27,657 nucleotides of DNA from a virus (lineage: Duplodnaviria > Heunggongvirae > Uroviricota > Caudoviricetes), in IMG/VR virus record IMGVR_UViG_2703718778_000008; one strand, given 5' to 3'. Under the pieces are notes generated by a model. The model did not search any database. It saw nothing but the letters and a program-made list of their open reading frames with translations, and was not told where the DNA came from. A program made the translations under genes and the position numbers. Positions 561-24,766 of this stretch are shown here, piece after piece. Within the stretch, counting starts at the first letter, position 1. Every line of letters starts with the position of its first letter.

Positions 561-863
561 TCAGCCGAAAGGCACCCGCGCGTAATGTACTGGTTTTAAA
601 GCCATACCGCAATCCTCCAGTTGTAGCGTTAACTGACTGCGTCCCTGATGGGATTTGCGCATTGTCTCCCGTGGAATATCTTTATCGTGGAAGATCAACT
701 GAGGCTGGCCAATAATTCTGTGCACACTTTCCATTGTTGAAAATGTGGCGCTGCACTCAAGGTTATTGCACTGATAGTATTTGTAGCGGATGGTGCCGGT
801 ATCATTGGCGGCTTTACTGGTACGGATCCGGGCAGATGCGCCGCAGAATGGACAATGAAACAT
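561..863 (-). CDS. ogr: Ogr/Delta-family zinc-finger late transcription activator
   Basis: MFHCPFCGASARIRTSKAANDTGTIRYKYYQCNNLECSATF... has the C-X2-C-X24-C-X4-C arrangement and strong resemblance to P2 Ogr. Start taken at the internal ATG at 863 (GGGGGT upstream), after the stop of D. Confidence 0.85.
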   Translation of the reverse strand: MFHCPFCGASARIRTSKAANDTGTIRYKYYQCNNLECSATFSTMESVHRIIGQPQLIFHDKDIPRETMRKSHQGRSQLTLQLEDCGMALKPVHYARVPFG

Positions 864-907: not shown

Positions 908-2032
908 CTAACCATTGCTTTCCTTTTCGGCTATCCACTCGGGTATTCTTGCCTCCAGTTCAAGCCTTGTGGTGAAGCCGCTTCCGTCGATATTGTGTTC
1001 CACTTTTGCAATGAGCCAGTCCTGATTGTCTATTTCGGTTTTAAAGCCGGTTACCGTGCCATGCATTTCAGGGTAAAGCTCCGCTCTGCCCCGGGCCAGC
1101 GTGATGGAGAATTCAGCCGCACCGCGCTGTAATTGCTGCCACCTGGCGGCAGCTGCGCGCTGTGCAGCAATTTCATTTGGGTAGGTTTTTCTCAGAACGA
1201 ACACGTTACCTTCTGCCCCCTCCATGTAGCTGCCTTCCCGGCTGCTGCTCTTTTCAGCGTGAGTTTTTCGTTTTTTTATGTTGACGGCTTTCTTTTTGCC
1301 ATGATTCAAATCCAGCCAGTACGCCTTCACCCCTGTGTATGCCTGGCGATCGGCTATTCTGAACTGGTGACTGTCTCCGTCACTGCGTGCCAGTGCAAAT
1401 GAGGGGAGTGGGCGCCCGTCAGCTGTCACGCCGCCACCCGGCAGAATGAACAGCAGACAGCCATTTTTGACGGTAGTGATGGCTCCCAGCATATCAGCCA
1501 TGCGGGTAAGGAATGACATGTCGCTTTCTTCCGTCTGGTCGGCATGATCGATTTCAATATCCATAAGCATATCGCTTATCTGGGCTTTCAGTCCGTAACG
1601 GTGGGCAATAGCGGAAACCACGCGTTCAACAGTCACGTCGTGCCAGGATACTTCCCGTTTGACGTTAAATTCCTCCCTGAAGTCTGCGCTGTTTGCACTC
1701 AGTGTCAGCCGATCCGGAGGTCCTTCATGAGCGACCTCATCAACAATGTAGGTGCCTTTATCAACCAGAGGCTCTCCCTTCCATCCCAGCATGACTCTGA
1801 TGTGTGTTCCCCGCCCGGGGAGAGCCAGCTGCCCGTCGGCATCATCCAGCACAAGAGTGACCCTGTCTGCTTCAAACCCCCGGTTGTCTGTCATGGAAAG
1901 CGATATCACCCGGTTATTCAGTTCCTGAAGAGTGTTTTTATCCTGCTCCCTGTCCAGTGAAACGCTGAAATCAGGCATTTTCACCAGTTCTTTCAGGGGG
2001 GAATAAACCGTGTTACCGTTCAGCAATACCAT
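908..2032 (-). CDS. D: P2 gpD-like tail protein
   Basis: Long minus-strand ORF with gpD-like sequence throughout. Start set at ATG 2032 (MVLLNGNTVYSPL...), preceded by GGAGGA; the longer track ORF (to 2383) would overlap the FI start. Confidence 0.8.
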   Translation of the reverse strand: MVLLNGNTVYSPLKELVKMPDFSVSLDREQDKNTLQELNNRVISLSMTDNRGFEADRVTLVLDDADGQLALPGRGTHIRVMLGWKGEPLVDKGTYIVDEVAHEGPPDRLTLSANSADFREEFNVKREVSWHDVTVERVVSAIAHRYGLKAQISDMLMDIEIDHADQTEESDMSFLTRMADMLGAITTVKNGCLLFILPGGGVTADGRPLPSFALARSDGDSHQFRIADRQAYTGVKAYWLDLNHGKKKAVNIKKRKTHAEKSSSREGSYMEGAEGNVFVLRKTYPNEIAAQRAAAARWQQLQRGAAEFSITLARGRAELYPEMHGTVTGFKTEIDNQDWLIAKVEHNIDGSGFTTRLELEARIPEWIAEKESNG

Positions 2033-2186
2033 AATTCCTCCGTTTTTCCCGCCACAGTTGCATACCAGAAACACCACCGGAATGAGTTTGGGTTGTATGT
2101 GTATTGCGAGAAACCGCAGTTCGTGAAAAAGCTCCCCGTGTTCGTAAAGATCTCTGCTGAACTCACACCAATGCAGGGTGAATAAT
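2033..2186. promoter_or_regulatory. Divergent intergenic region between D and FI; expected to hold the late (PF-type) promoter for the FI operon
   Basis: 154 bp non-coding gap between two divergently oriented structural genes. No Ogr site (TGT-N12-ACA) could be identified confidently by eye. Confidence 0.35.
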
Positions 2187-3374
2187 ATGGCTGAAACCCG
2201 TTTCCATGGCGTGCGGGTCCGGGAGAATGCGGATCTGGTCACGGCCATTAATGATATTGACTCCAGTGTGATTGGTATCGTGGCTGTTGCTGATGATGCT
2301 GATACAAAAACATTTCCGCTGGATAAGCCGGTGCTCCTGACGCGTGTCATGGATGTGCTGGGTAAGGCCGGAAAAACCGGCACGCTGTATAAAAGTCTGA
2401 AAGCTATTGCCGATCAGGTCAGCACCAGAGTTGTTGTGGTGCGGGTTGCTGCTGCGAAGGAGGGGGATGGTCAGCCGACACAAACGCAGCTTGTTATTGG
2501 TGAGGTCAAAAATGACGGAACCTATACAGGCATGCAGGCGCTCCTGGTGGCTGAACAGAATGAGGCTGTTGGTGTTCGTCCCAGGATCCTGGCCGTGCCA
2601 TCGCTTGACACCAAAGAGGTGGTGGCGGCACTGGTAACCGTCGCGAAAAAGCTGCGTGCCTTTGTGTATGCGGGCTGTCCCGGCTGTAATACCGTGCAGG
2701 AGGCTGTTACCTGGCGCGCCGATCTTGCTCACCGTGAAGTTATGCTGATCTGGCCTGATTTTATCGCGTACAACCCTAACAGTGGCCAGAATGAGGCTTT
2801 TCCTGCATCTGCGTATGCGTGCGGGTTGCGTGCGAAGATTGACCACGAGCAGGGCTGGCATAAATCCCTGTCCAATGTGGCAGTGAATAATGTCCTGGGT
2901 ATTTCTGTGCCGGTGTTCTGGTCGCTCCAGGCAGAGGACAGTGACGCGGAAACCCTCAATGACAAGGAGATCACCACACTCATTAAACGTAACGGCTTCC
3001 GTTTCTGGGGTAACCGGACTCTCGACACCACTACCTACACCTTTGAGACCTACACGCGTACGGCGCAGTCGCTGGCGGATACCATCGCCGAATCGCAGTT
3101 TGAAACCGTGGACAAGCCGCTGACGCCGTCGAACGTGAAGGATGTGTTAAGCGATATCCGGGCAAAACTGAGTGCCCTTGTGACAGCGGGTAAACTTATC
3201 GGGGCAGAGTGCTGGTATGACGTGGTGGATAACGGCACAACGGATCTGCGTCAGGGGATTGTGCGGATCCGCTACAGATATACGCCGGTACCACCGCTTG
3301 AAGATCTGGAGCTTCACCAGACGTTTACTGATGAGTTCTTTGACGGTGCATTTGCATCACTGGGAGGTGAGTAA
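2187..3374 (+). CDS. FI: Tail sheath protein
   Basis: Near full-length similarity to P2 gpFI (e.g. ...TFPLDKPVLLT..., ...GFRFWGNRT..., ...RYRYTPVPPLEDLEL...). ATG at 2187 with AGGG upstream. Confidence 0.9.
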   Translation: MAETRFHGVRVRENADLVTAINDIDSSVIGIVAVADDADTKTFPLDKPVLLTRVMDVLGKAGKTGTLYKSLKAIADQVSTRVVVVRVAAAKEGDGQPTQTQLVIGEVKNDGTYTGMQALLVAEQNEAVGVRPRILAVPSLDTKEVVAALVTVAKKLRAFVYAGCPGCNTVQEAVTWRADLAHREVMLIWPDFIAYNPNSGQNEAFPASAYACGLRAKIDHEQGWHKSLSNVAVNNVLGISVPVFWSLQAEDSDAETLNDKEITTLIKRNGFRFWGNRTLDTTTYTFETYTRTAQSLADTIAESQFETVDKPLTPSNVKDVLSDIRAKLSALVTAGKLIGAECWYDVVDNGTTDLRQGIVRIRYRYTPVPPLEDLELHQTFTDEFFDGAFASLGGE

Positions 3375-3883
3375 TGGCGGTACCAAACAAACTTCGCGTT
3401 TTCACGGTGTACATCGATGGCGAAAACAAGCTGGGGCGGGTGACGTCCTTCACGCCGCCTAAACTGACCCGAAAAACGGAGTCCTTCCGTGGTGCCGGGA
3501 TGCCCGGCAGTGTTTCCGTCGACTTTGGTCTTGATGATGGTGCACTGGATCTCTCTTTTGCGGTAGGCGGCGCAGATGCCCACCTTTTCTCCCGTTATGC
3601 CGGGTCACTTGATGAAGTCTGTCTTCGCTTTTCCGGTGAGTACTATTCGGATGCGGATATCAGATATGTGGATATTGAGGTCCGCGGGCGCATCACTGAA
3701 ATCGATATGGGGGAGGCGAAGCAGGGTGAAGACACTGAGCACAGTTATTCGATGAAAAACACCTGGTACAGACTGAGTGTGGACGATCGGGAAAAAATCG
3801 AATTTGATGTGCTGAATTTTATCTGGCGCATTGACGGTAAGGATGTGCTGCCGGATCGCACCCGCTCGATGCTGGGCTTCTGA
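3374..3883 (+). CDS. FII: Tail tube protein
   Basis: MAVPNKLRVFTVYIDGENKLGRVTSFTPPKL... typical of P2 gpFII; start overlaps the FI stop (TAATG). Confidence 0.9.
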   Translation: MAVPNKLRVFTVYIDGENKLGRVTSFTPPKLTRKTESFRGAGMPGSVSVDFGLDDGALDLSFAVGGADAHLFSRYAGSLDEVCLRFSGEYYSDADIRYVDIEVRGRITEIDMGEAKQGEDTEHSYSMKNTWYRLSVDDREKIEFDVLNFIWRIDGKDVLPDRTRSMLGF

Positions 3884-3930
3884 TTATTGTTTAACAGAGA
3901 ACGGCGGGGATCCCGCCGTGGAGACTGAAA

Positions 3931-4320
3931 ATGGATAAAGAAACGGAAATGGCCACTGACACTGCCGTCAGTAACGGGGAGGCTTCCGCGGTGGCAGTTG
4001 CCGCTACGGCTGCACCTAAGAACGTGGTGAAGCTGACGGTGCCTGTTGTGCGCGGAGATGTGTCGTACAGTGAAATTAAAATCGGACCGCTGGCGAATCA
4101 GGCCGGATCGCTGCGTGGGCTGTCTTTGCTTGCGCTTTACAACATGAACTGTGATGCCATGGTCACCTGGCTTGCGCGTGTGACAGAGCCAAAACTTAAG
4201 GAGGCCGAAATGTATGCCATGAATACGGCGGATTTTACGGCGCTGAGCTCGGCGGCGGTTAATTTTTTCGCACCCTCGGGGTCGAATGCACCGGCACCGG
4301 AGAACACGGCAGAGCCGTAA
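3931..4320 (+). CDS. E: Tail assembly chaperone E
   Basis: Size, position between FII and T, and slippery site near its 3' end are characteristic of P2 gpE. Confidence 0.8.
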   Translation: MDKETEMATDTAVSNGEASAVAVAATAAPKNVVKLTVPVVRGDVSYSEIKIGPLANQAGSLRGLSLLALYNMNCDAMVTWLARVTEPKLKEAEMYAMNTADFTALSSAAVNFFAPSGSNAPAPENTAEP

Positions 4321-4478
4321 CCTGTCTTTGCTTTGACTGCATTGAAGATCCCGTTGCGGATATTGCTGTTATTTTTAACTGGCCGCCCGCAGAGATATTT
4401 GCAATGACGCCTGCAGAGGTGGTCGCCTGGCGTGAGCGGGCGGCTGCCAGAAGCGGAAGTCACAATCATGATGAATAA
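3931..4478 (+). CDS. E': Tail assembly chaperone E+E', product of a programmed -1 frameshift
   Basis: Slippery heptamer T_TTT_TTC at 4263-4269 in the E frame; the -1 frame stays open to TAA at 4476-4478 and encodes ...NWPPAEIFAMTPAEVVAWRERAAARSGSHNHDE, resembling P2 E'. Confidence 0.6.
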
Positions 4479-7260
4479 TCTGCATATCAGGGTTGCTCTG
4501 GCGGCGGCAGACACCCTGACACAACCTCTCAGGCGCGCCCGCGAAACCGTGGGCGCGCTTTCTGATTCCCTCCGTGAAACTCAGGACTCCATCCGCTCGC
4601 TTGAACGGCAGAGTGAAGCCTTTGCTGCGGCACAGACTAAATTTGACGAAGCCACCCGGAAAATTGCCGCTGTTCAGCAGCAACTGAACCGTCTGCAGCA
4701 GGCGGAGCGTGAGGATACCGTGCTCAGTGAACGGCAGCGTGAAATGATGGCTTCGCTGACCACCCGGCTTGAACGTCTGAACCGGGTGAGGGATGTACAT
4801 CAGCGACGCCTGGAGGATTCACGCCGGGAGCTGGAGAGACACGGTATTGCCGCAGAGGGCAGCAGTCAGACCATACAGGCAGCCATTCGCCGGACGGCAG
4901 AGTATAACGAAGAGCTGGCGCGACAGCGGCAGGCACTCGCACAGGTGACCCGTGCACAGCAACGCTATGAACAGGCGCAGGAGCGACTCGGGCGGATACG
5001 TAATGCCGGTGCGGCGGCACTGGCTGCCGGTGCAGCAGGACTTTACGCTGGCGGGCGTGCTGTTGCGCCGGTGATGGATCTCCAGCGTCATGGTGCCGTC
5101 ATTGCGGCTCAGGCAGGAGAGGGCGCGTCAGATGCCGTGGGGTATACCGGGGTTATAAACCACATGGTTCATACCGGTATCACACCGGATGCACAACTGG
5201 CGGCTGAAGCTGTGGGTGCTGTCCGCTCCACTCTGGGTGGGCTGGGGGCGGTTAGTGAGAATGAACTGACCCGAATCACCCGAAAAATGCTGGATATGCA
5301 GGCCGTGATGGGGGGCGATATCCCGCAGCACATTCAGGCGGCTGCCATCATGATCAAAAACGGTCTTGCACGCAGCAGTGACGAGGCGGTTGATCTGATG
5401 GTGGCGGGCATGCAGCGCATGGGGCCGGTTATGCGCGATGAGCTGCCTGAGATCCTTCACGAGTATTCGACCCATTTTCGTAACATGGGGCTGACAGGGT
5501 CGGAAACCATGACGCTCCTTGCGGATATGGCGCAGCAGGGGAAGTTTGCGCTGGATAAAACCGGCGATGCCATCAAGGAGTTCAGTATTCGCGGCTCCGA
5601 TATGTCAAAGGCGAGTGCTGAAGCGTATGCGCTTATCGGGCTGGATGCAGCCAGGATGTCATCGGCTGTAGCCAGTGGTGGAACGGCTGCACGGGCTGCG
5701 CTGCAGAAAACAGCCTCGGGTCTGTTGCAGATCGTCGATCCGGCTGAGCGGGCCAATGCGGCCATCGCACTTTTTGGTACACCGGTTGAAGATCTGTCTG
5801 TCGATCAAATCCCTGCCTTTCTTGGCGCGCTGGCGCGGGTGTCTGACCGTATGGCTGACGTGTCTGGTGTGGCGGACCGGATGGGGCAAACCCTGCGTGA
5901 CAATCTGAGTGGTGATGTGGCGCGGCTTACCGGGACGTTCAGCGCGCTGAGAAGTGGGATTATCGGGGAGATTACGGACGATCTGCGTGGGCTTGTCCGG
6001 ATGGCCACAGCGTGGGGTGAGCGTCTGCAGGCGTGGGTGAATGCGCATCCGGAACTGGTGCGAATGATTGCGCTGACGACGGGAGCGGTGCTGGCGTTAA
6101 CCACAGCGGTGGGGGCGTTGTCCGTTGCGGCCTGGATGGTTGTCGCACCGTTACTGAAACTGCGTCTGGGGCTTGCCCTGCTTCGCGCGATCCCGGCCGG
6201 ACTCTCCGTTGCCGGTACGCTGTTTGGCGGACTGACGGGTGTGATTTCAGCCGTGGGGGCTGCGCTGGGGGCGCTGACCTGGCCGGTTGTGGTGGCGGTG
6301 GGAGCCCTGGTCGGTGGTGCTCTGCTGATCTGGCGCTACTGGGATCGGGTCAGGGCGTTTGTGAGCGGATTTATTGAAGGGGTACAGTCAGCACTGGCGC
6401 CCTTCATGGCGACAGCCTCCCGTTTTGCGCCGCTGCTGGATCTGGTTTCAGGGGCACTGTCCCGTATTCTGGGATGGTTTAAATCCCTGTTAACGCCAGT
6501 CTCCTCCACGCGTGATTTGCTTGAGCAGTGCACCTCTGCCGGGCAGACGTTCGGGAGCACTCTGGCCGGTGCGTTAGCCACGGTTTTTTCGCCCCTGAAA
6601 GCTCTTATTGACGGTCTGGCGTGGGTGCTGGAAAAACTCGGTGTTCTGCCCGGTGAAGCTGAGCGGGTTAAGCGAAAACTGGATGAGGCCCGTAAAACGC
6701 CGGTGGCATGGGAGTGGGATCCGGAACAGAAAAAAATGGTTCAGAAGGCGTGGCACTGGTCGCCTCCTGGTGGGGCCAGTGTGCCTTCCGGCGCCTCCGG
6801 TACACAGCCTCCGCCGGTGGCGCTCCCTGCGGGGATAGCGCCGGACGGTAACCGTAACGTTCTCCGTCACCTGAAAGGCATTGAGGGGAATACCGGTGGT
6901 CTGCTGGCTGAAAACCGTAAACGTATCGGACCCGGAGATATTGTGTTTAAACATCTTCCACGGGCGCTGGCGGTCCGGGGGCAGTGGCATGAACCTGTCG
7001 TTGCGCCGTCTTCCGGCGGAATGCGCGCGCTGCCACAGGAGGAGATTCAGGTGCAGCAATGGCCGACGGCACGCCCGGCGCCACGAATGCACCAGCAGGA
7101 AACCTTCGCCAGCGCCTTTCAGGGGGAGATACATGTGCATCTTCACGGGGTGAGTTCGTATAATCCCCGGGAACTGGCGCGCATGGTTGGTGACGCTGTC
7201 AGGGCGGAAATGAACAGAATGGCACGTGCCGGAACCGGCAGCTTCCGCGATCGCGACTGA
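4468..7260 (+). CDS. T: Tail tape measure protein
   Basis: About 930 aa; coiled-coil N-terminal region and Gly/Ala-rich hydrophobic middle segment; follows E/E'. Start at ATG 4468 (MMNNLHIRV) with GGAAG upstream; the track's earlier start is a GTG. Confidence 0.85.
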   Translation: MMNNLHIRVALAAADTLTQPLRRARETVGALSDSLRETQDSIRSLERQSEAFAAAQTKFDEATRKIAAVQQQLNRLQQAEREDTVLSERQREMMASLTTRLERLNRVRDVHQRRLEDSRRELERHGIAAEGSSQTIQAAIRRTAEYNEELARQRQALAQVTRAQQRYEQAQERLGRIRNAGAAALAAGAAGLYAGGRAVAPVMDLQRHGAVIAAQAGEGASDAVGYTGVINHMVHTGITPDAQLAAEAVGAVRSTLGGLGAVSENELTRITRKMLDMQAVMGGDIPQHIQAAAIMIKNGLARSSDEAVDLMVAGMQRMGPVMRDELPEILHEYSTHFRNMGLTGSETMTLLADMAQQGKFALDKTGDAIKEFSIRGSDMSKASAEAYALIGLDAARMSSAVASGGTAARAALQKTASGLLQIVDPAERANAAIALFGTPVEDLSVDQIPAFLGALARVSDRMADVSGVADRMGQTLRDNLSGDVARLTGTFSALRSGIIGEITDDLRGLVRMATAWGERLQAWVNAHPELVRMIALTTGAVLALTTAVGALSVAAWMVVAPLLKLRLGLALLRAIPAGLSVAGTLFGGLTGVISAVGAALGALTWPVVVAVGALVGGALLIWRYWDRVRAFVSGFIEGVQSALAPFMATASRFAPLLDLVSGALSRILGWFKSLLTPVSSTRDLLEQCTSAGQTFGSTLAGALATVFSPLKALIDGLAWVLEKLGVLPGEAERVKRKLDEARKTPVAWEWDPEQKKMVQKAWHWSPPGGASVPSGASGTQPPPVALPAGIAPDGNRNVLRHLKGIEGNTGGLLAENRKRIGPGDIVFKHLPRALAVRGQWHEPVVAPSSGGMRALPQEEIQVQQWPTARPAPRMHQQETFASAFQGEIHVHLHGVSSYNPRELARMVGDAVRAEMNRMARAGTGSFRDRD

Positions 7261-7270
7261 GGTGAAAAAG

Positions 7271-7762
7271 ATGATGATGATTTATGGGATGTTTGTGTTT
7301 CAGTTAAGTACCCTGCCGCATCAGCAGGTGGAACAGAGTAAACGCTGGCGACACGTCAGTAATGAACGGGTTAACCGTTCATCCTCCTGGCAGTATATTG
7401 GCTCTGGTGAAGATCACATCACGATGTCCGGTGTGCTCTGTCCGGAAATCACCGGCGGGGAGGTGTCACTGACTGCCCTGAACACCCTGGCCTACACAGG
7501 ATTACCTTGGCCACTGATTGATGGTGTCGGACAGATTTACGGGATGTATGTCATTACGGAAATCAGGACCACCCGTCAGGAGCTGGATCGCTATGGCATG
7601 GCCCGCAAAATTGAGTTCACTGTCAGCTTTCAGCGATGCAATGAAGATCTGCGTGAGCGTCTTCAGTCGGGCTCGGTGGGTGATCTGATGGCAGGATTAA
7701 AAAACAGCGCGTCGTCGGCCCTGTCGTCGGCGTCCTCTGCGCTGTCTGGTCTCATGTTGTGA
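7271..7762 (+). CDS. U: Tail protein U
   Basis: MMMIYGMFVFQLSTLPHQ...GVLCPEITGG...GQIYGMYVITEI... closely parallels P2 gpU; ATG triplet at 7271 after GAGGTGA. Confidence 0.85.
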   Translation: MMMIYGMFVFQLSTLPHQQVEQSKRWRHVSNERVNRSSSWQYIGSGEDHITMSGVLCPEITGGEVSLTALNTLAYTGLPWPLIDGVGQIYGMYVITEIRTTRQELDRYGMARKIEFTVSFQRCNEDLRERLQSGSVGDLMAGLKNSASSALSSASSALSGLML

Positions 7763-7772
7763 AGGTCACTGT

Positions 7773-8360
7773 TCAGGCTTCGGCTTCTTTTCCCCAGCCA
7801 ACCTTATAGTCCAGAATCGCCGCCGTATCGTTCAGGGCGGCGATCTCTTTTTTCATGTTACGCTGGCGAATGTGAATTTCCATCCCTTTGGCAAACAGGG
7901 CTTTTGCGGCTGCATCGCTGAGGGCAATCAGCTCATCAGCAGAAACAGGAACATCGTTGTTCTGTGCATCAGTCCAGAAAAAATCCAGCGGCAGGATCCC
8001 CGCTTTTGCGGCAGCAACGGAAGGCTCAAGGCGGGCCTGCGTTGACTTCCCGTAGTCCCATTTCCTGCCGTTATGTTCAAAGGTGTAACTCGCCGCTTCC
8101 ATCGCATTACGCCAGGCGTTGATTTCGTCGTTTTTCAGGCGTCTGGCGTTTTCCCTGTCAGTGTCGTTTTCCTGGTATTCAGATACAGAGCCGTGATTTC
8201 CTGCTTTCAGTTCGCCCCAGAGTTTTTTGCCGTGTGGCGAGTTGTCATATTCGGTTGCCGTATAGGGCAGCCAGCTCTCCTCCCCTTCAAACTGGATCTC
8301 ACAGTCGATAGTGCCGTCACGGTTATAAGCGGCATTTCTTGCTGATTTGATTGTGTGCAT
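7773..8360 (-). CDS. G: Tail fibre assembly protein
   Basis: Lies immediately downstream of H on the same strand; C-terminal region typical of P2 gpG / Tfa proteins. Confidence 0.75.
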   Translation of the reverse strand: MHTIKSARNAAYNRDGTIDCEIQFEGEESWLPYTATEYDNSPHGKKLWGELKAGNHGSVSEYQENDTDRENARRLKNDEINAWRNAMEAASYTFEHNGRKWDYGKSTQARLEPSVAAAKAGILPLDFFWTDAQNNDVPVSADELIALSDAAAKALFAKGMEIHIRQRNMKKEIAALNDTAAILDYKVGWGKEAEA

Positions 8361-8371
8361 GAGTCTCTCCG

Positions 8372-9712
8372 TCAGGCAATGCGCTCAAATATTCCGATTC
8401 CTGCGCCTGCATAAATGTCAGCGCAGGCCCGCCACGTGCCCGGTGGCCTGCGGTTTGTGTTCCAGTTTTGCATGGATTCATAAAAACTGATTTCGAAGTC
8501 GGAATTAGTCATGCTCATCAGTCTGAGTTTACTGCCCGGGCGGGTATCTCCGGGCGCTATATTAATTCTGGCAGGATATACCCCCTCGGCATCCGTTGCC
8601 GCCAGAATAAAGCTGCCCACATCCCAGAGTGTCCGCTGTGTTTTTGCCTGTGCAGCCTCCAGTGCTTGCCGTGCTTTCTGCCCGGCGTTTTCTGCTGCCG
8701 TCATGGCCGTCTTCACAGCTTTTGGTGTGGCAGCCAGCACTTCACTGTCACTGTCCGTTGCGCTGCTTAGCTGAACAATACCTCGCTCTGTCAGGGAGGC
8801 ATCGCCGGTCTGCGTGAGGGGGAGTATGGCAACCTCCTTCCATTCAGACCACGGCCCGTTGCCGGTGAAGTTACCTGTCACTGTCCGGATAAATTTTCGT
8901 GGTGGATTCCAGGCGGTGTATTCCTGCTGGCAGAATCCCCATGCGCCCATCCTGATGGATAATGATCCGGCTGATGTTACCGGGTAGTGATGTGCTGTAG
9001 TGGCGCCGTTGTTGTTGGGCTGATAGTAGTCACCATGATGTTCAGGTCTTCCCAGTGTATCCAGGTCCACGCTGAGGGCGGCTGTTGGTCTTGTTACTGC
9101 CAGCGCCTTAAGTGCTTTTATTGCTTTGGGTGTGGCTGCCCGGGTTTCATCATCACTGTCGGTTTCACTACTGAGCTGAGTAAATCCCTTACTGGTGGTT
9201 GTGGCATCCGGGTGTTTACCGTTTTGTTCATGCTGCTTTATCATTTCTGCCACGCCAGCCTGTGTTGCCATGGTGGTTGATGAGTCGGCTGTCAGATTTA
9301 CAGAGGCTTCGTTGCTCAGCAGAATCACCATGCGGAATACCTGTTCTCTGCCTGAGCCCTCATCAAGCTGCGGTTTGTAACCTTCCGCAACATTACCCAC
9401 GGCGATGAGTGTGCCTTTGCTGTCAAACAGACCGATTTCGCGGATCCAGAATCCTCCTTCATTCGCAGGAATGATCACTTCGGCGGTTAAAAAACTGGTG
9501 TTTTCCGCGTCACGGCTGACCCTGCTGACCTCGCCCCGCCAGACCTCTTTAACGAGAGCGGTTTGCGTGGCCAGTGGTTCTGTGGGTTTACCGTTACCGT
9601 CTCCGACGGCGATATGTGTCAGCGTGATCTTTTCTCCATCCGGTAACACCGCAGCTGCGAGGGCTGCTGTTCCGGCATTTGTGATAATGGTTTTGTATTT
9701 TGCGGCCATCAT
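8372..9712 (-). CDS. H: Tail fibre protein
   Basis: N-terminus MMAAKYKTIITNAGTAALAAA... and duplicated ...TQLSSETDSDDETRAATPKAIKAL / ...VQLSSATDSDSEVLAATPKAVKTA motifs match P2 gpH. Confidence 0.8.
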   Translation of the reverse strand: MMAAKYKTIITNAGTAALAAAVLPDGEKITLTHIAVGDGNGKPTEPLATQTALVKEVWRGEVSRVSRDAENTSFLTAEVIIPANEGGFWIREIGLFDSKGTLIAVGNVAEGYKPQLDEGSGREQVFRMVILLSNEASVNLTADSSTTMATQAGVAEMIKQHEQNGKHPDATTTSKGFTQLSSETDSDDETRAATPKAIKALKALAVTRPTAALSVDLDTLGRPEHHGDYYQPNNNGATTAHHYPVTSAGSLSIRMGAWGFCQQEYTAWNPPRKFIRTVTGNFTGNGPWSEWKEVAILPLTQTGDASLTERGIVQLSSATDSDSEVLAATPKAVKTAMTAAENAGQKARQALEAAQAKTQRTLWDVGSFILAATDAEGVYPARINIAPGDTRPGSKLRLMSMTNSDFEISFYESMQNWNTNRRPPGTWRACADIYAGAGIGIFERIA

Positions 9713-12169: not shown

Positions 12170-12795
12170 AGGTTGTTGATAATGATTTCCGTCACTTTCT
12201 GTCTGTCGGCTTCACTGAATCCCAGCAGTTCGCGTTGCGGATAGCGGACGGCATTACCGGCAGAGACCAGTGACACTTCGCCGAACTGATGAACGCGGGC
12301 AATGCGGGCTGCGCGGCCTTCAAATCCCACGCTGACGCCGCCGGGATCGGTTTTTACCTTCAGAAAGCGGTTTGTCCGAAGCTGCTCAAACATGGGTGGA
12401 CGCTTAATGGCGCTCTGCGTTCGCCTGCGGGTGTCAATTTCCAGGTATTCTTCAATATCGGCTTTGTGGAACGAGCGTATTCCCCGGCGCTCCGTGTCGT
12501 AACCGGTGATCATGGGGCCGTACCGGCCGGTTGTTGTCCGCCAGTTTTTCAGTCGTCTCACCTGAGTGCCGTTCCAGATGAACACCACACCTGCCTGGAC
12601 ACGGAATACACGTTTTTTACGGGCGGGCCACCGGTTACCGTCCGGTGATTGTTGCGAACGTATACGCTTTTGTTGCGCGGCGCGGACAGCCTGACCGACA
12701 GCACGTGCTGTTTTGTTTATACCGGCAGCGGACAGACCACTGAGGATCTCCTGAAAGAGACCGTCCAGTCTGTGCAGGTCATCCGGAGCCATCAT
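12151..12795 (-). CDS. S: Tail completion / virion morphogenesis protein S-like
   Basis: Position between R and V. Start moved to the internal ATG at 12795 (MMAPDD...) so that it overlaps R only briefly. About 214 aa, longer than P2 gpS. Confidence 0.65.
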   Translation of the reverse strand: MMAPDDLHRLDGLFQEILSGLSAAGINKTARAVGQAVRAAQQKRIRSQQSPDGNRWPARKKRVFRVQAGVVFIWNGTQVRRLKNWRTTTGRYGPMITGYDTERRGIRSFHKADIEEYLEIDTRRRTQSAIKRPPMFEQLRTNRFLKVKTDPGGVSVGFEGRAARIARVHQFGEVSLVSAGNAVRYPQRELLGFSEADRQKVTEIIINNLWRNTR

Positions 12796-13261: not shown

Positions 13262-13435
13262 TTATGGCATGTTCTGGTTGTTCTGTTGTGCAGACTTCTG
13301 ACTGATTTTTTCAGCGGCGCGCTCGTCAATTTTTCGCTGAAAATAATTTCTGATAACACTGTAACCGCCGCTGATCAGATACAGCGCGCAGACTGCAGTA
13401 CAGAAATACAGCATGATCTGATGAATGAATAACAT
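13262..13435 (-). CDS. Small single-pass membrane protein (57 aa), function unknown
   Basis: MLFIHQIMLYFCTAVCALYLISGGYSVIRNYFQRK...; ATG at 13435 with GAGGTG upstream (the track's start is a TTG). Lower GC than neighbours. Sits where P2 has lysA-type accessory lysis genes, but no similarity asserted. Confidence 0.35.
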   Translation of the reverse strand: MLFIHQIMLYFCTAVCALYLISGGYSVIRNYFQRKIDERAAEKISQKSAQQNNQNMP

Positions 13436-13580
13436 AATCACCTCACACAAATGATTGACATAACGATGTCTGGCGTTTTAAAAAAATGAATAACAATAAT
13501 AAACACTCTCCATAATTCCTCTTGCGCTCCCGTCAGGTATCTTCTCCTCTAAGTCTTGCCTGCCGGGAGCCTCTTTTTTC

Positions 13581-15626
13581 TTATGCGGCGTTGCTGTTAT
13601 TGATATCCACCGTCACATACTCAATCAGCACGGGGTAGGTGTCCTGGTTACTGGTGATATCCGTGATCAGCAGTTTGTCGTTATCCAGTCCTGCCGCCGG
13701 GCATTTCGCCAGATTAAAGGCCGCCTGGGTCTGACCGTTGATGACCGGTGTCACGCTGATGCTGTTATTTCCGGCAAACCGGAACACCACGTTGTGCCAG
13801 TTATGATTAAATGCCCCGAAGGTTCCCAGTTTTGCATTCTGTTGTTTGTGCTGCATCAGATTCAGGTTTGCGCTGTCGCTCTGGATGAAGAAGGCGGCCA
13901 GCATATCGTTTCCTGCGCTGCCTTCCAGAACAACGTTTTCAGGTAGCTGAGAAACCGGCCAGTGCAGAGCCATGGCGAAGCGGTTTTCTGCCAGCTGAAC
14001 ACCTTCCGGGATTTTGAAACGAAAGGCAATTTCCCCGCCTTTCTGAAGTAATTCAGCTGCTTTACTTGCAGGCACATCGTGGGCGATTTTCCAGGCTGTT
14101 TGTTGCCCCTGGACTTTTTCCACTCGCATGGCTTTACCGCTCTGAGCAGCAGAGTCATTTACGACGGAGGCTTTTCCATCTGCCCCTGTCCAGCCCTGTT
14201 CTTTCAGTTTCCCTTCCTGTGCGTCTGCGCGATAAGCGACGGCCGTTGTTCTTGCCGGTGATGACTGCGTACCTGCGCCCGGCTGAGGTGCAGGTGTGTA
14301 GGGCTGCGGGCTTTCCGTGGTGGTGCTGTCTGAACCGGCCGTGGCGGGAGGTACTGCGACCACGCTGAACGGTGCGGGTGCACCTTTCAGGAAGGCGACG
14401 GTCTTCCCGGCATGCATCAGGATCGCCGTTGCCAGGCGGTCAGAAATAATGCCGCGGCGGGCCCATGAACTGAAATGCGTGGCGCGATCTGAAGAGGTCC
14501 AGTTTCCGTTACTACGGGATGCAGCACCGTAATAACCGGCTTCTGCCAGGTCAGGATCTTCGGCAGGCAGGTTTGTTGGCGTGTTAGCACCTTTCTCATC
14601 GGTCATCAGGGGCACAAAATAAATTTTTTGCGCTTCTTTGTTCTGATATGCACCGTAAACCACCGGGTACTGAGAGGTATATTGTTGTTTCCAGATATAG
14701 GTGGTATCGCCGCAAATCCAGGGAACAAGTGATGCGTTGCCTCCGGTGCACTGTGCAGCATATGCGCTGAGATCGGCGCGGAACTGATTCACCATGTTCA
14801 GGAATAATTGCGGGTGCTGTGCGTATGTTGCTGATTTCAGATCAAACTCTCCCAGCATCCAGACCACGGATAACAGGACGTTTTTGGGGTTTTTATCCAG
14901 CGCGGCTTTTGTACGGGTAAGCAGATCGTTATACAGCGGTTTGCCGACGCCCCACAGGGATGATTCGGCCGTTGCTCCTGAAGATTCACTGAATGCCCCC
15001 TCAGCGCCGGAAGTAAGCGCTGACCCTCCACGACAGCAAGGTACCAGGAGGATCCCTGCATTTTTCGGGATAAACGCCAGTAATTTTTTGGCAATATGTA
15101 AACCCTGTCCGACGCAGCCATACTGACCTTTTGACAGATCGGCGTTCGGATGATTAAGGCTGCTCATATCCTGTACATCATGGAGACAGTGATCTGCCGG
15201 AATAATATCGTTATAGGTACATGCAGCGCCGCCCGGTGTTACCGTACTGCGACGCGCTAACTGTTTAATTCGTGGATCAGGACTGTCGAATGTATCGGGT
15301 AATGGCAGCCCCTCACCGTATGCCATGCCATTGGACTGACCAGCCAGTGGCACCACATAATAAAACTCTGGCTCAGTTGTGTGTCCAGTGTCGTATCCGT
15401 CGGTAGTGCCCGGTACGGGGTTTTCCTCGCCTTTTGGTACCGGAATGGCTGATGGCAGGTCTCTGTCAGTGACCAGTGCCTGCATCAGGTAAAATGGTGC
15501 TCCCGGCTCTGATGCTGAGACAGGTCCCCCAAGAAGTCCCCATCCTTCCCTGAGCATGGGCGCAAGTTTTTCGGCAAGTTCCTTGTTCGTCATTGCCGTC
15601 ACAAGCTGATAATGTTTCGGTACCAT
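13581..15626 (-). CDS. DUF1737 / sialate-O-acetylesterase (SASA, SGNH-like) domain protein, NanS-p-like, with a C-terminal extension
   Basis: N-terminal ...HYQLVTAMTNKELAEKLAPMLREGWGLLGGPV...YLMQALV (DUF1737-like), then ...YYVVPLAGQSNGMAYGEG... (the GQSN catalytic motif of SASA esterases). Start taken at ATG 15626 (GGAG upstream). Confidence 0.65.
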   Translation of the reverse strand: MVPKHYQLVTAMTNKELAEKLAPMLREGWGLLGGPVSASEPGAPFYLMQALVTDRDLPSAIPVPKGEENPVPGTTDGYDTGHTTEPEFYYVVPLAGQSNGMAYGEGLPLPDTFDSPDPRIKQLARRSTVTPGGAACTYNDIIPADHCLHDVQDMSSLNHPNADLSKGQYGCVGQGLHIAKKLLAFIPKNAGILLVPCCRGGSALTSGAEGAFSESSGATAESSLWGVGKPLYNDLLTRTKAALDKNPKNVLLSVVWMLGEFDLKSATYAQHPQLFLNMVNQFRADLSAYAAQCTGGNASLVPWICGDTTYIWKQQYTSQYPVVYGAYQNKEAQKIYFVPLMTDEKGANTPTNLPAEDPDLAEAGYYGAASRSNGNWTSSDRATHFSSWARRGIISDRLATAILMHAGKTVAFLKGAPAPFSVVAVPPATAGSDSTTTESPQPYTPAPQPGAGTQSSPARTTAVAYRADAQEGKLKEQGWTGADGKASVVNDSAAQSGKAMRVEKVQGQQTAWKIAHDVPASKAAELLQKGGEIAFRFKIPEGVQLAENRFAMALHWPVSQLPENVVLEGSAGNDMLAAFFIQSDSANLNLMQHKQQNAKLGTFGAFNHNWHNVVFRFAGNNSISVTPVINGQTQAAFNLAKCPAAGLDNDKLLITDITSNQDTYPVLIEYVTVDINNSNAA

Positions 15627-15636
15627 AGTGACTCCG

Positions 15637-15912
15637 TTATTTTTCATGAGTGTTCATTCGTGCTGTCCGCTGCCGCTCCAGCCCGGCAATGGCGGCTTTA
15701 TCGGCATTACAACTGTCCAGGGCATCTACCAGTCGGTCTCCCCAGTCAGCCACATCAGCCCATATCATGTGTTGCGGCAGCACCGGTACCGGCGTCTGTC
15801 TGGTCAGACTTTCCGGCACGCTCCCGCAAATGACGCCGGTTTTCAGCGGCGCTGGCGTGTTGTTGCAGGCTGTCAGCAACATCAGCAGGGGGAGAAGTGC
15901 GTGCGCACTCAT
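15637..15912 (-). CDS. lysC: o-spanin (Rz1/LysC-like outer-membrane lipoprotein), nested in and extending past lysB
   Basis: MSAHALLPLLMLLTACNN...: signal peptide with lipobox LTAC. Lies in a different frame overlapping the 3' part of lysB, as in the P2 lysB/lysC arrangement. Confidence 0.6.
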   Translation of the reverse strand: MSAHALLPLLMLLTACNNTPAPLKTGVICGSVPESLTRQTPVPVLPQHMIWADVADWGDRLVDALDSCNADKAAIAGLERQRTARMNTHEK

Positions 15913-20584: not shown

Positions 20585-20739
20585 GGAAATTCTCCATAAC
20601 CTGGTCGTTTTTCCCATGATGGCGGCAGATAACGGTGTGTCTCAAGGTGCTTAAGTTGTATGGCGACGGGGACAACGCGGGCTGGTATCAGGCGGTATTG
20701 CTGAGGCTTAATCTTGCCCTGTTAATGTCAGGGGGTGCA
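20585..20739. promoter_or_regulatory. Divergent late promoter region between O and P (expected PO / PP, Ogr-dependent)
   Basis: Non-coding gap between divergent head and terminase operons; contains a partial dyad TGT-N13-ACA (about 20657-20675). Confidence 0.45.
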
Positions 20740-22473
20740 ATGATCCAGGATGTCTTTATTCGTATGCGGGCGAAACAGCTTTACTGGCAGGGGTATACCC
20801 CGGCGGATATCGCTCAGCTGATGGGAATAAACCAGAACACGATTTATTCGTGGAAAAAACGCGATGAGTGGGATGCCACTCCCCCGATCCAGCGGGTCAC
20901 CCAGTCCATTGATGCACGCCTGATACAGCTCACCGCCAAACCGGATAAAAGCGGCGGTGACTTTAAGGAAATTGACCTGCTGACGCGCCAGCTGAAAAAA
21001 CTGAATGACGGTCAGGGAGAACAGGCTGTTTCCGGTAAGAAGCCCCGCAGGCGCAAACTGAAAAATCACTTCACCGAAGAGCAGATTGTCGCTCTCAGGG
21101 AAAAAATCCTGCCGTCACTGGCCTGGCATCAGCGCGAATGGTACGACAACCGCCATCACCGCAACCGCATGATCCTGAAGTCGCGTCAGATTGGTGCGAC
21201 CTGGTATTTTGCGCGCGAAGCACTCCTTGATGCACTGCGTGATGATGTCTCCGCCGGGTACCAGCGCAACCAGATATTTTTGTCCGCATCCCGTCGCCAG
21301 GCGTATCAGTTCAAACACTTTATTCAGCAGGCGGCGCTGGAAGTTGATGTCGAACTGAAAGGGGGTGACAAGATTGTTTTGTCTAACGGTGCAGAGCTTC
21401 ACTTCCTTGGCACATCGGCAGCAACCGCTCAGTCGTATACCGGACACCTTAAATTTGATGAATTTTTCTGGGTCAGTAATTTTGTGCAGTTGCGAAAGGT
21501 GGCTGGCGCAATGGCAACCCTGAAAGGCCTTACCCGTACCTACTTTTCAACGCCATCGGGTGAAACGCATGAAGCTTATCAGTTCTGGACGGGGGATCGC
21601 TGGAACAGTGAGCGTCCCCGCTCAAAACGCACTGAATTCGATGTGTCTCATTCGAACCTGAAAGGGGGCGTGCTCTTCCCGGATAAAACATGGCGGCAGA
21701 TTGTCACCATTGAGGATGCAGTCGCGAACGGGTGGGAATATACGAGCATTGACGATATCCGGGATGAAAACACCGAAAGCGAATTTCGTAACCTGTACAT
21801 GTGCGAGTTCGTGCGTGATGGCGAGGCGGCGTTCAGTCTGAATGCGCTGATCGGCTGTGGTGTGGATGGATACGACGAATGGCCTGACTGGAAACCTTTT
21901 GCTGCGCGTCCGATGGGCGTGCGGGAAGTCTGGCTCGGGTACGACGCCAACGGCAGCAGCGGGAAGGGGGACTGCGGGGCGCTGTCGGTCTGCGTACCTC
22001 CACGGGTTACAGGCGGTCGTTTTCGTACCGTGGAGACGGTCAGGGTGCAGGGTATGGAGTTTGAACAGCAGGCGGCCCTGATTGAGGAATACACCCAAAA
22101 ATATAACGTGAAACATATCGGCATTGATGTGACCGGCGGGAACGGGGAGGGGGTTTATCAGATTGTGAAAAAGTTTTTCCCGATGGCCGTACCGTACAAC
22201 TTCAATATCGCCTCCAAGCGGGCACTGGTCATGAAAATGCTTCAGGTGGTGCGTGCCGGACGCTGGGAGTATGACCGCAGTGAACGTGACCTGATCCAGG
22301 CATTCGCATCGGTGCGAAAAATACAGACACCCGGCGGCTATATCACCTATGACACCGACCGCTCCCGCGGTGTGAGTCATGGGGATCTTGCCTGGGCAAC
22401 CATGCTTGCTGTTATCAATGAGCCAATTGGTGCGGAGCGTGAGGATAATCGCGGCTTTGCAATGGAGTTCTGA
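20740..22473 (+). CDS. P: Terminase ATPase (large) subunit
   Basis: About 577 aa matching P2 gpP in position and size. Start at ATG 20740 (GGGGGT upstream); ATG 20725 is an alternative. Confidence 0.85.
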   Translation: MIQDVFIRMRAKQLYWQGYTPADIAQLMGINQNTIYSWKKRDEWDATPPIQRVTQSIDARLIQLTAKPDKSGGDFKEIDLLTRQLKKLNDGQGEQAVSGKKPRRRKLKNHFTEEQIVALREKILPSLAWHQREWYDNRHHRNRMILKSRQIGATWYFAREALLDALRDDVSAGYQRNQIFLSASRRQAYQFKHFIQQAALEVDVELKGGDKIVLSNGAELHFLGTSAATAQSYTGHLKFDEFFWVSNFVQLRKVAGAMATLKGLTRTYFSTPSGETHEAYQFWTGDRWNSERPRSKRTEFDVSHSNLKGGVLFPDKTWRQIVTIEDAVANGWEYTSIDDIRDENTESEFRNLYMCEFVRDGEAAFSLNALIGCGVDGYDEWPDWKPFAARPMGVREVWLGYDANGSSGKGDCGALSVCVPPRVTGGRFRTVETVRVQGMEFEQQAALIEEYTQKYNVKHIGIDVTGGNGEGVYQIVKKFFPMAVPYNFNIASKRALVMKMLQVVRAGRWEYDRSERDLIQAFASVRKIQTPGGYITYDTDRSRGVSHGDLAWATMLAVINEPIGAEREDNRGFAMEF

Positions 22474-22478
22474 ACACA

Positions 22479-23522
22479 ATGAGTAAACGCAAAAAATACA
22501 CCGGAAAGCGGGGGCAGGATTCGCTACACGATGCACTGAAATCAACGCCTGCACTCAGCGCATTCACCTTTGATGGGCCCTATGAAGTCAGCCGCATGGA
22601 TCTCCTGGATAACATGTCATGTGCAGATAACGGGCGCTACTTTGATACCCCCATGGACTGGAACGCTATCGCCCGTGCATCCCGTCGTGCGTCCTGGCAT
22701 CAGTCGGCTTTGTACTTCAAGCGCAACGCCCTGAACGGGTGCTTTGTTCCTCACCCTCTGCTGTCCCGCCAGGCGTTTTCAGCCTTTGCGCTCGACTGGT
22801 TTGTGTTTGGTAATGCCTATCTTGAAGTGCGGCGTAACAGGCTGGGGGAACCACTCCTGCTTCGCCCGGCACTGGCAAAATATACACGCAGGGGAAGTGA
22901 CCTGGATACCTACTGGTATCTCAACGACGACGGTACGGAGTTCAGTTTCAGGAAAGGGACTGTGTGCCACGTGCTTAATCCTGATATTAATCAGGAGATC
23001 TACGGGATGCCGGAATATATCGGCGGGTTGCTGTCTGTCAGCCTGTCAAACTCAGCGGATACATTCCGCAAGCTCTACTACGATAACGGCTCGCATGCCG
23101 GGTGTATTATCTATGTAGGCACACCTCAGGCGAATGCGGAAAGTGTCGAGGCCATTAAAAAAACGCTTACGGATTCCCGTGGTCGCGGGGCGTTTAAAAA
23201 CCTGTTTCTTCATGCGCCGGGTGGTGGCAAGGATGGTGTGCAAATACTGCCGTTCCAGCAGATAACCGCAAAGGATGAATTCCTGAACATCAAGGGGAGC
23301 GCCCGCGACGATATCCTTGCTGCCCATCGTGTACCACCTCAACTGATGGGGGCAATGCCTGACGGGAATGCGGCGTTTGGTGACGTTGAGAAAGCGGCGA
23401 GGGTGTTTTTCATCAACGAGTTGCAACCTGTCATGGAGGCCATGAAGCATGTCAATGAATGGCTTGGCGTTGAGGTGATGCGCTTTAACCCCTATGCCCT
23501 GCTTCTGGATAACGCCAGCTGA
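22479..23522 (+). CDS. Q: Portal protein
   Basis: 347 aa directly downstream of P; sequence reminiscent of P2 gpQ. Confidence 0.9.
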   Translation: MSKRKKYTGKRGQDSLHDALKSTPALSAFTFDGPYEVSRMDLLDNMSCADNGRYFDTPMDWNAIARASRRASWHQSALYFKRNALNGCFVPHPLLSRQAFSAFALDWFVFGNAYLEVRRNRLGEPLLLRPALAKYTRRGSDLDTYWYLNDDGTEFSFRKGTVCHVLNPDINQEIYGMPEYIGGLLSVSLSNSADTFRKLYYDNGSHAGCIIYVGTPQANAESVEAIKKTLTDSRGRGAFKNLFLHAPGGGKDGVQILPFQQITAKDEFLNIKGSARDDILAAHRVPPQLMGAMPDGNAAFGDVEKAARVFFINELQPVMEAMKHVNEWLGVEVMRFNPYALLLDNAS

Positions 23523-24747: not shown

Positions 24748-24766
24748 ATGTGTTAACCTCGATAAG

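Follow-up and report, generated by a model that had tools for sequence, protein, structure and literature searches.

A sheath-to-U tail operon inverted relative to P2 is standard in a large group of P2-like phages, and D probably still has a promoter

In phage P2 (NC_001895), G, the genes FI to D and ogr share a strand, and the annotation treats FI-D as a single F operon. In the DNA stretch analysed here (27,657 nt, referred to as the window), FI-FII-E/E'-T-U (2187-7762) occupies the plus strand, and ogr-D (561-2032) and G-H-…-O the minus strand; the canonical P2 layout of Peduovirus, Citexvirus and others, in which FI-FII-E-T-U-D are co-directional and form one operon downstream of G, is absent. 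This locus raises the question of whether the FI-U block has genuinely been inverted, whether such an inversion has disabled the prophage, and from which promoter D would be transcribed. The genes concerned are as follows.

561-863, minus strand: ogr, late activator, 100 aa (Pfam PF04606 Ogr_Delta zinc finger, E 7e-16; PGAP in a 99%-identical E. coli prophage)
908-2032, minus strand: D, tail/baseplate hub, 374 aa (phrog_52, E 2e-151; Pfam Phage_GPD)
2187-3374, plus strand: FI, tail sheath, ATG at 2187 (phrog_23, E 1e-118; Pfam sheath domains)
3374-3883, plus strand: FII, tail tube (Pfam Phage_tube, E 3e-48)
3931-4320, plus strand: E (phrog_103)
3931-4478, plus strand: E+E' by -1 frameshift, slippery site T TTT TTC at 4263-4269 (Pfam Phage_P2_GpE on 4341-4478)
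4468-7260, plus strand: T, tape measure protein, start according to PGAP (phrog_28; Pfam PhageMin_Tail)
7271-7762, plus strand: U, tail protein (Pfam Phage_P2_GpU, E 8e-39)
7773-8360, minus strand: tail-fibre assembly gene in the G position, DUF4376 type, lambdoid-like (phrog_1141; Pfam DUF4376)
8372-9712, minus strand: H, fibre gene

Gene identities were assigned by PHROGs and Pfam searches, while the junctions were read straight from the sequence. The window is an E. coli prophage of P2-like type (Peduoviridae), apparently intact and integrated beside serS, and contains the P2-type set Q, P, O, N, M, L, X, lysis, R, S, V, W, J, I, H, FI, FII, E/E', T, U, D and ogr (tail genes, D and ogr identified by PHROG/Pfam; PGAP names from a 99%-identical copy). 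The PGAP annotation of one collinear E. coli prophage comprises the full P2 gene set together with integrase, repressor and replication genes. From T TTT TTC at 4263-4269 and a -1 frame that is open to 4478 and matches Phage_P2_GpE, the programmed frameshift characteristic of Peduoviridae, upstream of the tape measure gene, is predicted. An esterase-like cargo gene is located at 13581-15647, and PADLOC applied to the cargo genes returned no matches.

At one end of the inverted block, the ATG of D at 2032, with GGAGG just ahead of it, is separated from FI by a divergent gap of 154 bp (2033-2186); at the other end, the stop codons of U (TGA, 7760-7762) and G (7773-7775) converge across 10 bp (7763-7772). 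The first-pass annotation had given this gene order, these strands and both gap lengths correctly, and its description of P2, with these genes on one strand and FI-D as a single operon, agrees with the NC_001895 annotation.

That annotation had allowed for either a genuine inversion relative to P2 or a local assembly error, and it is the former that holds. Collinearity with the window extends over ~25 kb in twelve complete E. coli genomes, at 98-99% identity, carriers including E. coli DETEC-S792 (NZ_CP116067) and JNEC-KY208; the D/FI junction was retrieved from 11 and the U/G junction from 12 independent complete E. coli genomes, at 98-100% identity, and the canonical P2 orientation is absent from those 11-12 genomes. 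The notion that an assembler placed the FI-U block in the wrong orientation, for which the tight breakpoints are the sole argument, is rejected because independently assembled complete genomes carry both junctions; the identical layout in 95 of 95 related loci, across phage, genome and IMG/VR records, likewise speaks against it, and its probability is considered negligible.

The arrangement extends well beyond E. coli. A divergent D/FI pair, with U convergent with the fibre genes, is annotated in P88_4B11, Shae_phiSM, Reipivirus, Reginaelenavirus, Novemvirus, Senquatrovirus and many further phage records, so that the window shares its inverted FI-U block with the P88-type layout group. Within Peduoviridae, at least five ICTV genera (Xuanwuvirus, Reipivirus, Reginaelenavirus, Novemvirus and Senquatrovirus) possess the inverted layout, as do prophages residing in Salmonella, Edwardsiella, Citrobacter, Klebsiella and Rouxiella. 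FI lies on the strand opposite to D in all 95 related loci, these being defined by a D at least 60% identical to that of the window and drawn from phage, genome and IMG/VR records; it lies on the same strand as D in 74 of 74 P2-type loci. Considering that phiCTX and HP1 carry all these genes on one strand, the inversion is taken to be a derived state, which is old and arose within an enterobacterial lineage; the comparison consists of a clean split by D identity and these two co-directional outgroups. The inverted block is therefore the fixed, normal layout of a large P2-like phage group, and what the first-pass annotation had named as refuting its reading, namely that the arrangement is the norm in a described P2-like subgroup, corresponds to what was found for Xuanwuvirus and at least four sister genera. 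No explicit statement of the inversion was found in the literature on P88, ΦSM and SEN4/5, in a 2026 survey of P2-like diversity or in a 2026 paper on P2/P4 defence hotspots; the layout is thus already known from deposited genomes and their annotation.

An inversion may be genuine and nevertheless harmful, and it had been suggested that the prophage could be defective. A recent, strain-specific inversion that severed D from its promoter would agree with the rarity of this prophage in E. coli (~12 of 5426 complete genomes) and with the fragmentation of fibre gene H in one carrier. Against such an event stand the occurrence of the layout in at least five ICTV genera and in several bacterial genera, with D identity as low as 60%, and the presence of conserved promoter-like elements that appear to face D. 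Moreover, all tail genes of the window are intact, including the entire FI-U block, which retains the slippery T TTT TTC of E/E', and P88 (PMC5285337), ΦSM (PMC6456863) and SEN4/5 (PMC5261728) all form plaques with the inverted layout. The suggestion of a defective prophage was thereby not sustained, and a recent crippling inversion is regarded as very improbable. A different proposal is that FI-U represents an actively invertible segment, flipped by a site-specific invertase and comparable to the fibre switches of Mu, P1 or Xuanwuvirus, of which one of two orientations happened to be sampled. Xuanwuvirus genomes do contain a DNA invertase adjoining U; this invertase, however, adjoins alternative fibre gene segments rather than FI-U. 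The block ends are without inverted repeats (the best pair, of 23 nt, is located inside D and T), an invertase gene is not annotated in the carrier prophage, and a single orientation was observed across the 95 related loci. A segment of the Gin/Cin/Hin type, which is defined by inverted-repeat crossover sites at its two ends and a serine invertase gene, was rejected on these three grounds, and there is next to no chance that this proposal is correct.

An ancient, fixed inversion still demands that late expression be rewired, as the first-pass annotation had rightly pointed out, and attention thus turns to the D/FI gap, the relevant elements of which are listed here together with the divergent O/P gap used for comparison.

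2033-2186, no strand assigned: D/FI gap, a proposed late promoter region that is bidirectional and depends on Ogr (9 diverged gaps aligned; 86 distinct gaps compared, anchored on the dyad)
2093-2111, centre 2102.5, no strand assigned: TTGT-N12-AGA dyad, candidate shared Ogr site, at a conserved position in the gap comparisons
2146-2151, plus strand: AAAGAT, -10-like hexamer of the predicted FI promoter (predicted start ~2158, dyad at ~-55.5)
2054-2059, minus strand: AACTGT, -10-like hexamer at the mirror position, proposed D promoter (predicted start ~2047)
20585-20739, no strand assigned: divergent O/P gap of 155 bp, with a perfect GTTGT-N12-ACAAC dyad mid-gap (20655-20676)

The consensus of P2 late promoters is TGT-N12-ACA (PMC3931495). 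Ogr-dependent promoters of this kind have the dyad centred near -55, a -10 element and no good -35, and they need Ogr as well as the alpha subunit of RNA polymerase for transcription. The gap displays the corresponding features of an Ogr-dependent late promoter, namely TGT-N12-AGA, with one mismatch (AGA as opposed to ACA, which renders the dyad of the window imperfect), whose centre lies 55.5 bp from both predicted starts. In an alignment of nine diverged gaps that are otherwise only 55% identical, TTGT and A.A form invariant columns, and of 86 distinct D/FI gaps, 85 contain TTGT-N12-A[CG]A, although conservation across homologous gaps does not constitute independent evidence. At +44 to +49 from the dyad centre, the hexamer on the FI side retains A2 in 77, A5 in 77 and T6 in 78 of 85 distinct gaps; at the same distance on the D side, A2 is retained in 81 and T6 in 75 of 85. 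The distance between the D-side hexamer and the D start codon varies from ~46 to 108 bp among 15 gaps, and its distance to the dyad is fixed, which makes the dyad, rather than the start codon, the reference point of this hexamer.

Across the whole window, TTGT-N12-ASA is not enriched (5 found versus 6.4 expected), and the promoter argument accordingly rests on position and conservation. For the same reason, matches at 9774 and 13842 were treated as chance occurrences. A candidate pV-like late promoter within S (TTGT-N12-ACA, 12670-12688) was also dismissed as a chance match, being unconserved in relatives and having no A2/T6 hexamer at the right distance.

A precedent for a shared activator site is provided by P2 itself, in whose RefSeq record one site (3057-3087) is annotated for both of the divergent promoters pO and pP, whose start points, 3016 and 3127, both lie 55.5 bp away from the centre of the dyad. 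The O/P gap of the window has the same architecture as P2 pO/pP, its -10-like hexamers being CATCAT (reverse complement of 20616-20621) and TAATCT (20709-20714), and the same logic is proposed for the D/FI gap. FI-FII-E/E'-T-U, along with its late promoter, was probably inverted long ago and then fixed in a large enterobacterial lineage, an event that would have set the dyad-symmetric predicted Ogr site of the F promoter beside the 5' end of D. The gap may consequently act as a bidirectional Ogr-dependent late promoter, in which a single central TTGT-N12-A(C/G)A is situated ~55 bp upstream of both starts, one start point driving FI through U and the opposite one driving D and probably also ogr. 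Judged from these sequence elements, it is likely that D still has a promoter. The layout, its distribution and the conservation and spacing of the elements were observed directly, and Ogr binding, both start points, D-ogr co-transcription and read-through at U/G are what we infer.

The principal competitor to this bidirectional model accepts that the layout is typical of the clade and supposes that D-ogr is transcribed from an ordinary, Ogr-independent promoter, with the dyad serving the FI promoter only. It draws on the poor D-side hexamer of the window, AACTGT, which is weaker than the AACCAT and AATCAT of relatives, and on a TAGAAT hexamer lying across the stop codon of D, 42-47 nt ahead of the ogr start, so that for ogr at any rate a separate promoter, like that of P2, may exist. 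A consensus scan of 2033-2186, minus strand included, detected no sigma-70-type promoter, however, and this competitor is also at odds with the A2/T6 spacing on the D side, fixed to the dyad and ranging over ~46-108 bp to the D start, and with a geometry that mirrors P2 pO/pP. Ogr-independent transcription of D-ogr is therefore rated as rather unlikely. For the full bidirectional proposal, according to which a one-directional F promoter became bidirectional, so that a single Ogr site would serve both FI-U and D-ogr, ogr would activate itself and the two operons would collide at U/G, the chances are judged to be even. Such regulatory rewiring was not found described in the literature searched.

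The collision point itself was said in the first-pass annotation to lack room for terminators, which is justified for this E. coli lineage alone. No intrinsic terminator fits the 10-bp U/G gap at 7763-7772 (folding z-scores -1.2, -1.6 and +0.6), and on the plus strand nothing convincing as a terminator was detected at the junction (z +0.6), leaving the FI operon with none found there. One weak structure was noted on the opposite strand.

7699-7747, minus strand (strand of the G transcript): weak hairpin followed by U6 in the 3' end of U, a possible though unconvincing terminator of the fibre operon (-19.2 kcal/mol, z -1.7; equally good folds in 10 of 200 shuffles)

Among relatives, the U/fibre junction spans 128-463 bp, and both of those scanned, 3LV2017 and phiT5282H, have a clear intrinsic terminator there. 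The gene in the G position is 75-78% identical at the nucleotide level to Eib and lambdoid phage genes. The 10-bp junction arose later and is peculiar to this E. coli lineage: a lambdoid-type tail-fibre module probably replaced the region that holds the terminator in two relatives (an invertase cassette in Xuanwuvirus), as a result of which the late operons converge without a recognisable intrinsic terminator. Taken jointly, an intact prophage, an ancient fixed inversion, a proposed bidirectional D/FI promoter and a later fibre swap at U/G form the best explanation of this locus, and one that we hold with considerable confidence.

P2 thus does not serve as a template for every P2-like prophage, given that a large group, common in Enterobacteriaceae, has the sheath-to-U operon inverted, and annotators and prophage-integrity callers should not take such a layout for evidence of rearrangement, defect or misassembly. 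A dyad-symmetric activator site seems to have been put to new use by the inversion, yielding another bidirectional late promoter; should this be confirmed, it would illustrate how symmetry in an activator site allows an operon inversion to be tolerated, and ogr would be autoregulated.

Among the closest known systems is Xuanwuvirus with Escherichia phage P88 (P88_4B11, NC_049391; Citrobacter phage Shae_phiSM, OR565851), its order and orientation, Q P | O...H G | U T E' E FII FI | D ogr, being those of the window, and its D/FI gap likewise measuring 154 bp with the dyad and -10 positions as in the window. The D and FI proteins of P88/Xuanwuvirus are 77% and 75% identical to those of the window, whereas at the nucleotide level only ~11-16% of the window aligns, at 72-79% identity, with the best phage records. 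The ICTV guideline for a genus is ~70% identity over genome length, and because of this low coverage the window does not belong to Xuanwuvirus by the whole-genome criterion. Xuanwuvirus moreover contains an invertase and an alternative fibre cassette between G and U, in place of the 10-bp junction of the window, and the esterase-like cargo gene of the latter is absent from P88_4B11 at that position. Klebsiella phages ST16-OXA48phi5.4 and 3LV2017, Enterobacter phage phiT5282H and Salmonella phage SEN4/5, representing Reipivirus, Reginaelenavirus, Novemvirus and Senquatrovirus, share the layout and often possess a perfect TGT-N12-ACA as central dyad, but are more distant, with a D that is 60-72% identical to that of the window. 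P2 (Peduovirus P2) has in common with the window its gene set, the E/E' frameshift, the Ogr activator and late promoters of the TGT-N12-ACA type; its FI...U, D and ogr are, however, co-directional with G, and its D is only 47% identical to that of the window.

The gene map of the window was built from a six-frame ORF list, with gene identities assigned by PHROGs and Pfam and start codons set as PGAP annotates them in an E. coli prophage of 99% identity.

Gene map of the window (coordinates, strand, gene)
561-863, minus, ogr
908-2032, minus, D
2187-3374, plus, FI
3374-3883, plus, FII
3931-4320, plus, E
-1 frame, open to 4478, plus, E'
4468-7260, plus, T
7271-7762, plus, U
7773-8360, minus, fibre assembly gene in the G position
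8372-9712, minus, H
onward to 20584, minus, I, J, W, V, S, R, lysis genes, X, L, M, N and O
20740-23522, plus, P and Q

In the sequence, D starts with an ATG at 2032 preceded by GGAGG and FI with an ATG at 2187, leaving a divergent gap of 154 bp (2033-2186), while the stop codons of U (7760-7762) and of the G-position gene (7773-7775) are separated by 10 bp. In P2, by contrast, G, FI, FII, E, T, U, D and ogr share one strand, and RefSeq annotates a single F operon from FI to D. The first-pass annotation, which described the FI-U block as inverted relative to P2, was accurate in every detail of strand and gap size when compared with the ORF map, the sequence and the P2 RefSeq record.

A query spanning the D/FI junction (1400-2900) was searched against deposited phage genomes, in many of which one joined place covers both D and FI. 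According to full annotation tables, the gene order and orientation of the window recur in five ICTV genera.

Genera with the same layout as the window (genus, phages)
Xuanwuvirus, P88_4B11 and Citrobacter phage Shae_phiSM
Reipivirus, Klebsiella phage ST16-OXA48phi5.4
Reginaelenavirus, Klebsiella phage 3LV2017
Novemvirus, Enterobacter phage phiT5282H
Senquatrovirus, Salmonella phage SEN5

The layout is also found in Salmonella, Edwardsiella, Citrobacter, Klebsiella and Rouxiella prophages, and the arrangement is the norm in a described P2-like subgroup represented by these five genera. Phage and prophage loci were pooled with 80 IMG/VR loci retrieved by a D-protein profile, and only loci containing both D and FI were counted: FI lies opposite D's strand in 95 of 95 loci whose D is 60-100% identical to that of the window, and on D's strand in all 74 P2-type loci (D 46-47% identical). 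Since Pseudomonas phage phiCTX has the P2 gene order and the structural genes of Haemophilus phage HP1 are all on one strand, the inverted state is derived and arose within an enterobacterial lineage. Two contigs with Firmicutes labels, from Vagococcus sp. WN89Y (L003) and a Planococcaceae MAG (L010), carry an enterobacterial-type P2-like tail region with a D 78% identical to that of the window, the former having the full P88-type layout; contamination or mislabelling of these assemblies is the probable cause.

The window falls among the P2-like phages, its layout being common to the P88-type genera (the five tabulated); membership of Xuanwuvirus is ruled out by nucleotide identity, as alignment to the best phage records covers only 11-16% of the query at 72-79% identity. 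RefSeq E. coli genomes already contain near-identical copies and the inverted arrangement is on record across many annotated phage genomes. In the literature searched, the arrangement is nowhere stated as an inversion and its regulatory consequence is nowhere discussed; the only mildly new element is the putative second bidirectional Ogr promoter described below.

Other readings of the inversion were weighed: a local assembly error, a rearrangement private to this prophage, a defective prophage and an actively invertible segment. When window positions 1-25000 were compared by megablast with 5,426 complete E. coli genomes, 12 genomes had a place covering at least 80% of the query, and in the 10 genomes listed one or two alignments account for 97-99% of the query, with identities of 98.3-99.4%. 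The D/FI junction (801 bp) is complete in 11 genomes at 98-100% identity and the U/G junction (751 bp) in 12, the P2 orientation of these sequences being found in none of the complete E. coli genomes; the layout is neither a misassembly nor a private rearrangement. In strain JNEC-KY208, the element is a complete prophage beside serS; its PGAP annotation includes an integrase, a repressor, a replication endonuclease and the whole set of P2-type morphogenetic genes. A defect is unsupported, as the window has every tail gene intact and keeps, for E/E', the slippery heptamer T TTT TTC (4263-4269) together with its open -1 frame. Active inversion is unlikely, given that no inverted repeats were found at the ends of the FI-U block, the prophage contains no invertase gene, and the 95 loci display one orientation. 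The inversion is not an error, does not mark a defect and is usual in its clade; the original interpretation is partly supported, in that the inversion is real and implies rewired regulation.

Infective particles are compatible with the inverted layout: P88 is inducible and lyses its host (PMC5285337), spontaneous release, plaque formation and lysogeny in K-12 are on record for ΦSM (PMC6456863), and SEN4/5 are plaque-forming with Myoviridae-type (contractile-tailed) morphology (PMC5261728). The tail of ΦSM is described in PMC6456863 as long and non-contractile (Siphoviridae), whereas the deposited Shae_phiSM genome (OR565851) encodes a P2-type tail sheath and is classified in Peduoviridae.

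At the convergent U/G junction, a DUF4376-type fibre assembly gene (Pfam) abuts U in the window. In relatives, U and the fibre genes lie 128-463 bp apart; in Xuanwuvirus, this space is occupied by a DNA invertase together with an alternative fibre cassette. Two other relatives carry a clean intrinsic terminator in this space on the fibre-operon strand, at 8819-8833 in L013 (11-bp stem followed by U6, z -3.4) and at 15481-15504 in L014 (z -2.4). No convincing terminator was found at the junction in the window: the plus strand scores z +0.6, and on the minus strand U6 follows a 9-bp stem that has a large internal loop and lies at 7699-7747, within the 3' end of U (z -1.7; 10 of 200 shuffles fold equally well). 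Read-through, Rho-dependent termination or transcriptional collision are possible where the two late operons end. The G-position gene matches genes from lambdoid-type E. coli phages, Eib-carrying ones included, at 75-78% nucleotide identity, suggesting that the fibre module was exchanged between phage families; such an exchange, later than the inversion, would have removed the U/fibre spacer. In the JNEC-KY208 carrier, the H gene is broken into fragments (the fibre region of the window being 7773-9712, minus).

Between the lysis genes and R (13262-15647, minus) lies a gene for a 688-aa protein with DUF1737, SASA esterase and DUF6645 domains, the architecture of the NanS-p type of sialate O-acetylesterase that Stx phages encode; a DUF1378 gene follows it. 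The region encoding the 688-aa protein has 74% nucleotide identity to orf3 of Stx2-converting phage 86, the module is absent at the corresponding position of P88_4B11, and it looks like lambdoid cargo inserted in a P2-like late operon. Just past ogr, at the serS-side prophage end, a Hok/Gef-type toxin gene (~286-426, minus) shares ~87% identity with the hok/mok-like loci that Stx phages carry and is present in two tandem copies in JNEC-KY208; a strong bidirectional terminator-like hairpin occupies 165-194. Where P2 carries old and tin, between portal gene Q and the replication genes, the window has a low-GC segment (23588-25500, 41-45%) with a 167-aa ORF of no assigned function and a DUF4760 gene, which yielded zero PADLOC matches and may represent unrecognised defence or cargo genes.

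A real inversion implies rewired regulation, and D is indeed separated from the F promoter, as the first-pass annotation pointed out. The D/FI gaps of nine diverged relatives were aligned, with column identity averaging 55%. Among the columns without variation are TTGT (2093-2096 in the window) and A.A (2109, 2111), constituting the motif TTGT-N12-A(C/G)A, which agrees with the element TGT-N12-ACA found in late promoters of P2 (consensus cited in PMC3931495). This motif is present in 85 of 86 distinct gap sequences, the remaining one having a single mismatch; the dyad of the window has one mismatch to TGT-N12-ACA, and the window as a whole shows no enrichment of the motif (5 occurrences versus 6.4 expected). 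Gaps were then anchored on the dyad centre (window 2102.5) and hexamers at +44 to +49 were compared on both sides. On the FI side these are of the GATGAT, GATTAT or GAATAT type (A2 77/85, A5 77/85, T6 78/85), with AAAGAT at 2146-2151 in the window; the mirror positions on the D side read AACCAT, AATCAT or GACCAT (A2 81/85, T6 75/85), with a weak AACTGT in the window (reverse complement of 2054-2059). The D-side hexamer is fixed relative to the dyad, while dyad and D start codon are spaced anywhere from ~46 to 108 bp apart in the 15 gaps examined, which argues for a putative promoter element rather than a translation signal.

From position and conservation only, we infer that the inversion placed the F promoter, with its symmetric Ogr site, 5' of D, where a -10 element on the opposite side would complete a second bidirectional late promoter, from which D would be read leftward, probably together with ogr, 44 bp downstream. 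Conservation of the motif, the mirrored hexamers and the pO/pP architecture of P2 make this the most likely mechanism. In addition, ogr may have retained its own promoter, as a TAGAAT hexamer overlaps the D stop codon 42-47 nt upstream of the ogr start, close to the annotated position of P2's ogr promoter.

The divergent pO/pP promoters of P2 have the same architecture as that proposed for the D/FI gap. In RefSeq, only one 'activator binding site; pO, pP promoters' is marked (3057-3087), and the starts are put at 3016 (minus) and 3127 (plus), each 55.5 bp from the dyad centre, which we placed at 3071.5; in the window, with the -10 hexamer set at -12 to -7, the predicted starts at ~2158 and ~2047 both place the dyad centre at -55.5. 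The divergent O/P gap of the window (20585-20739) is, at 155 bp, nearly equal in length to the D/FI gap and contains at its centre a perfect GTTGT-N12-ACAAC with -10-like hexamers at mirror positions, so that this phage seems to use twice the one bidirectional design known from P2 pO/pP.
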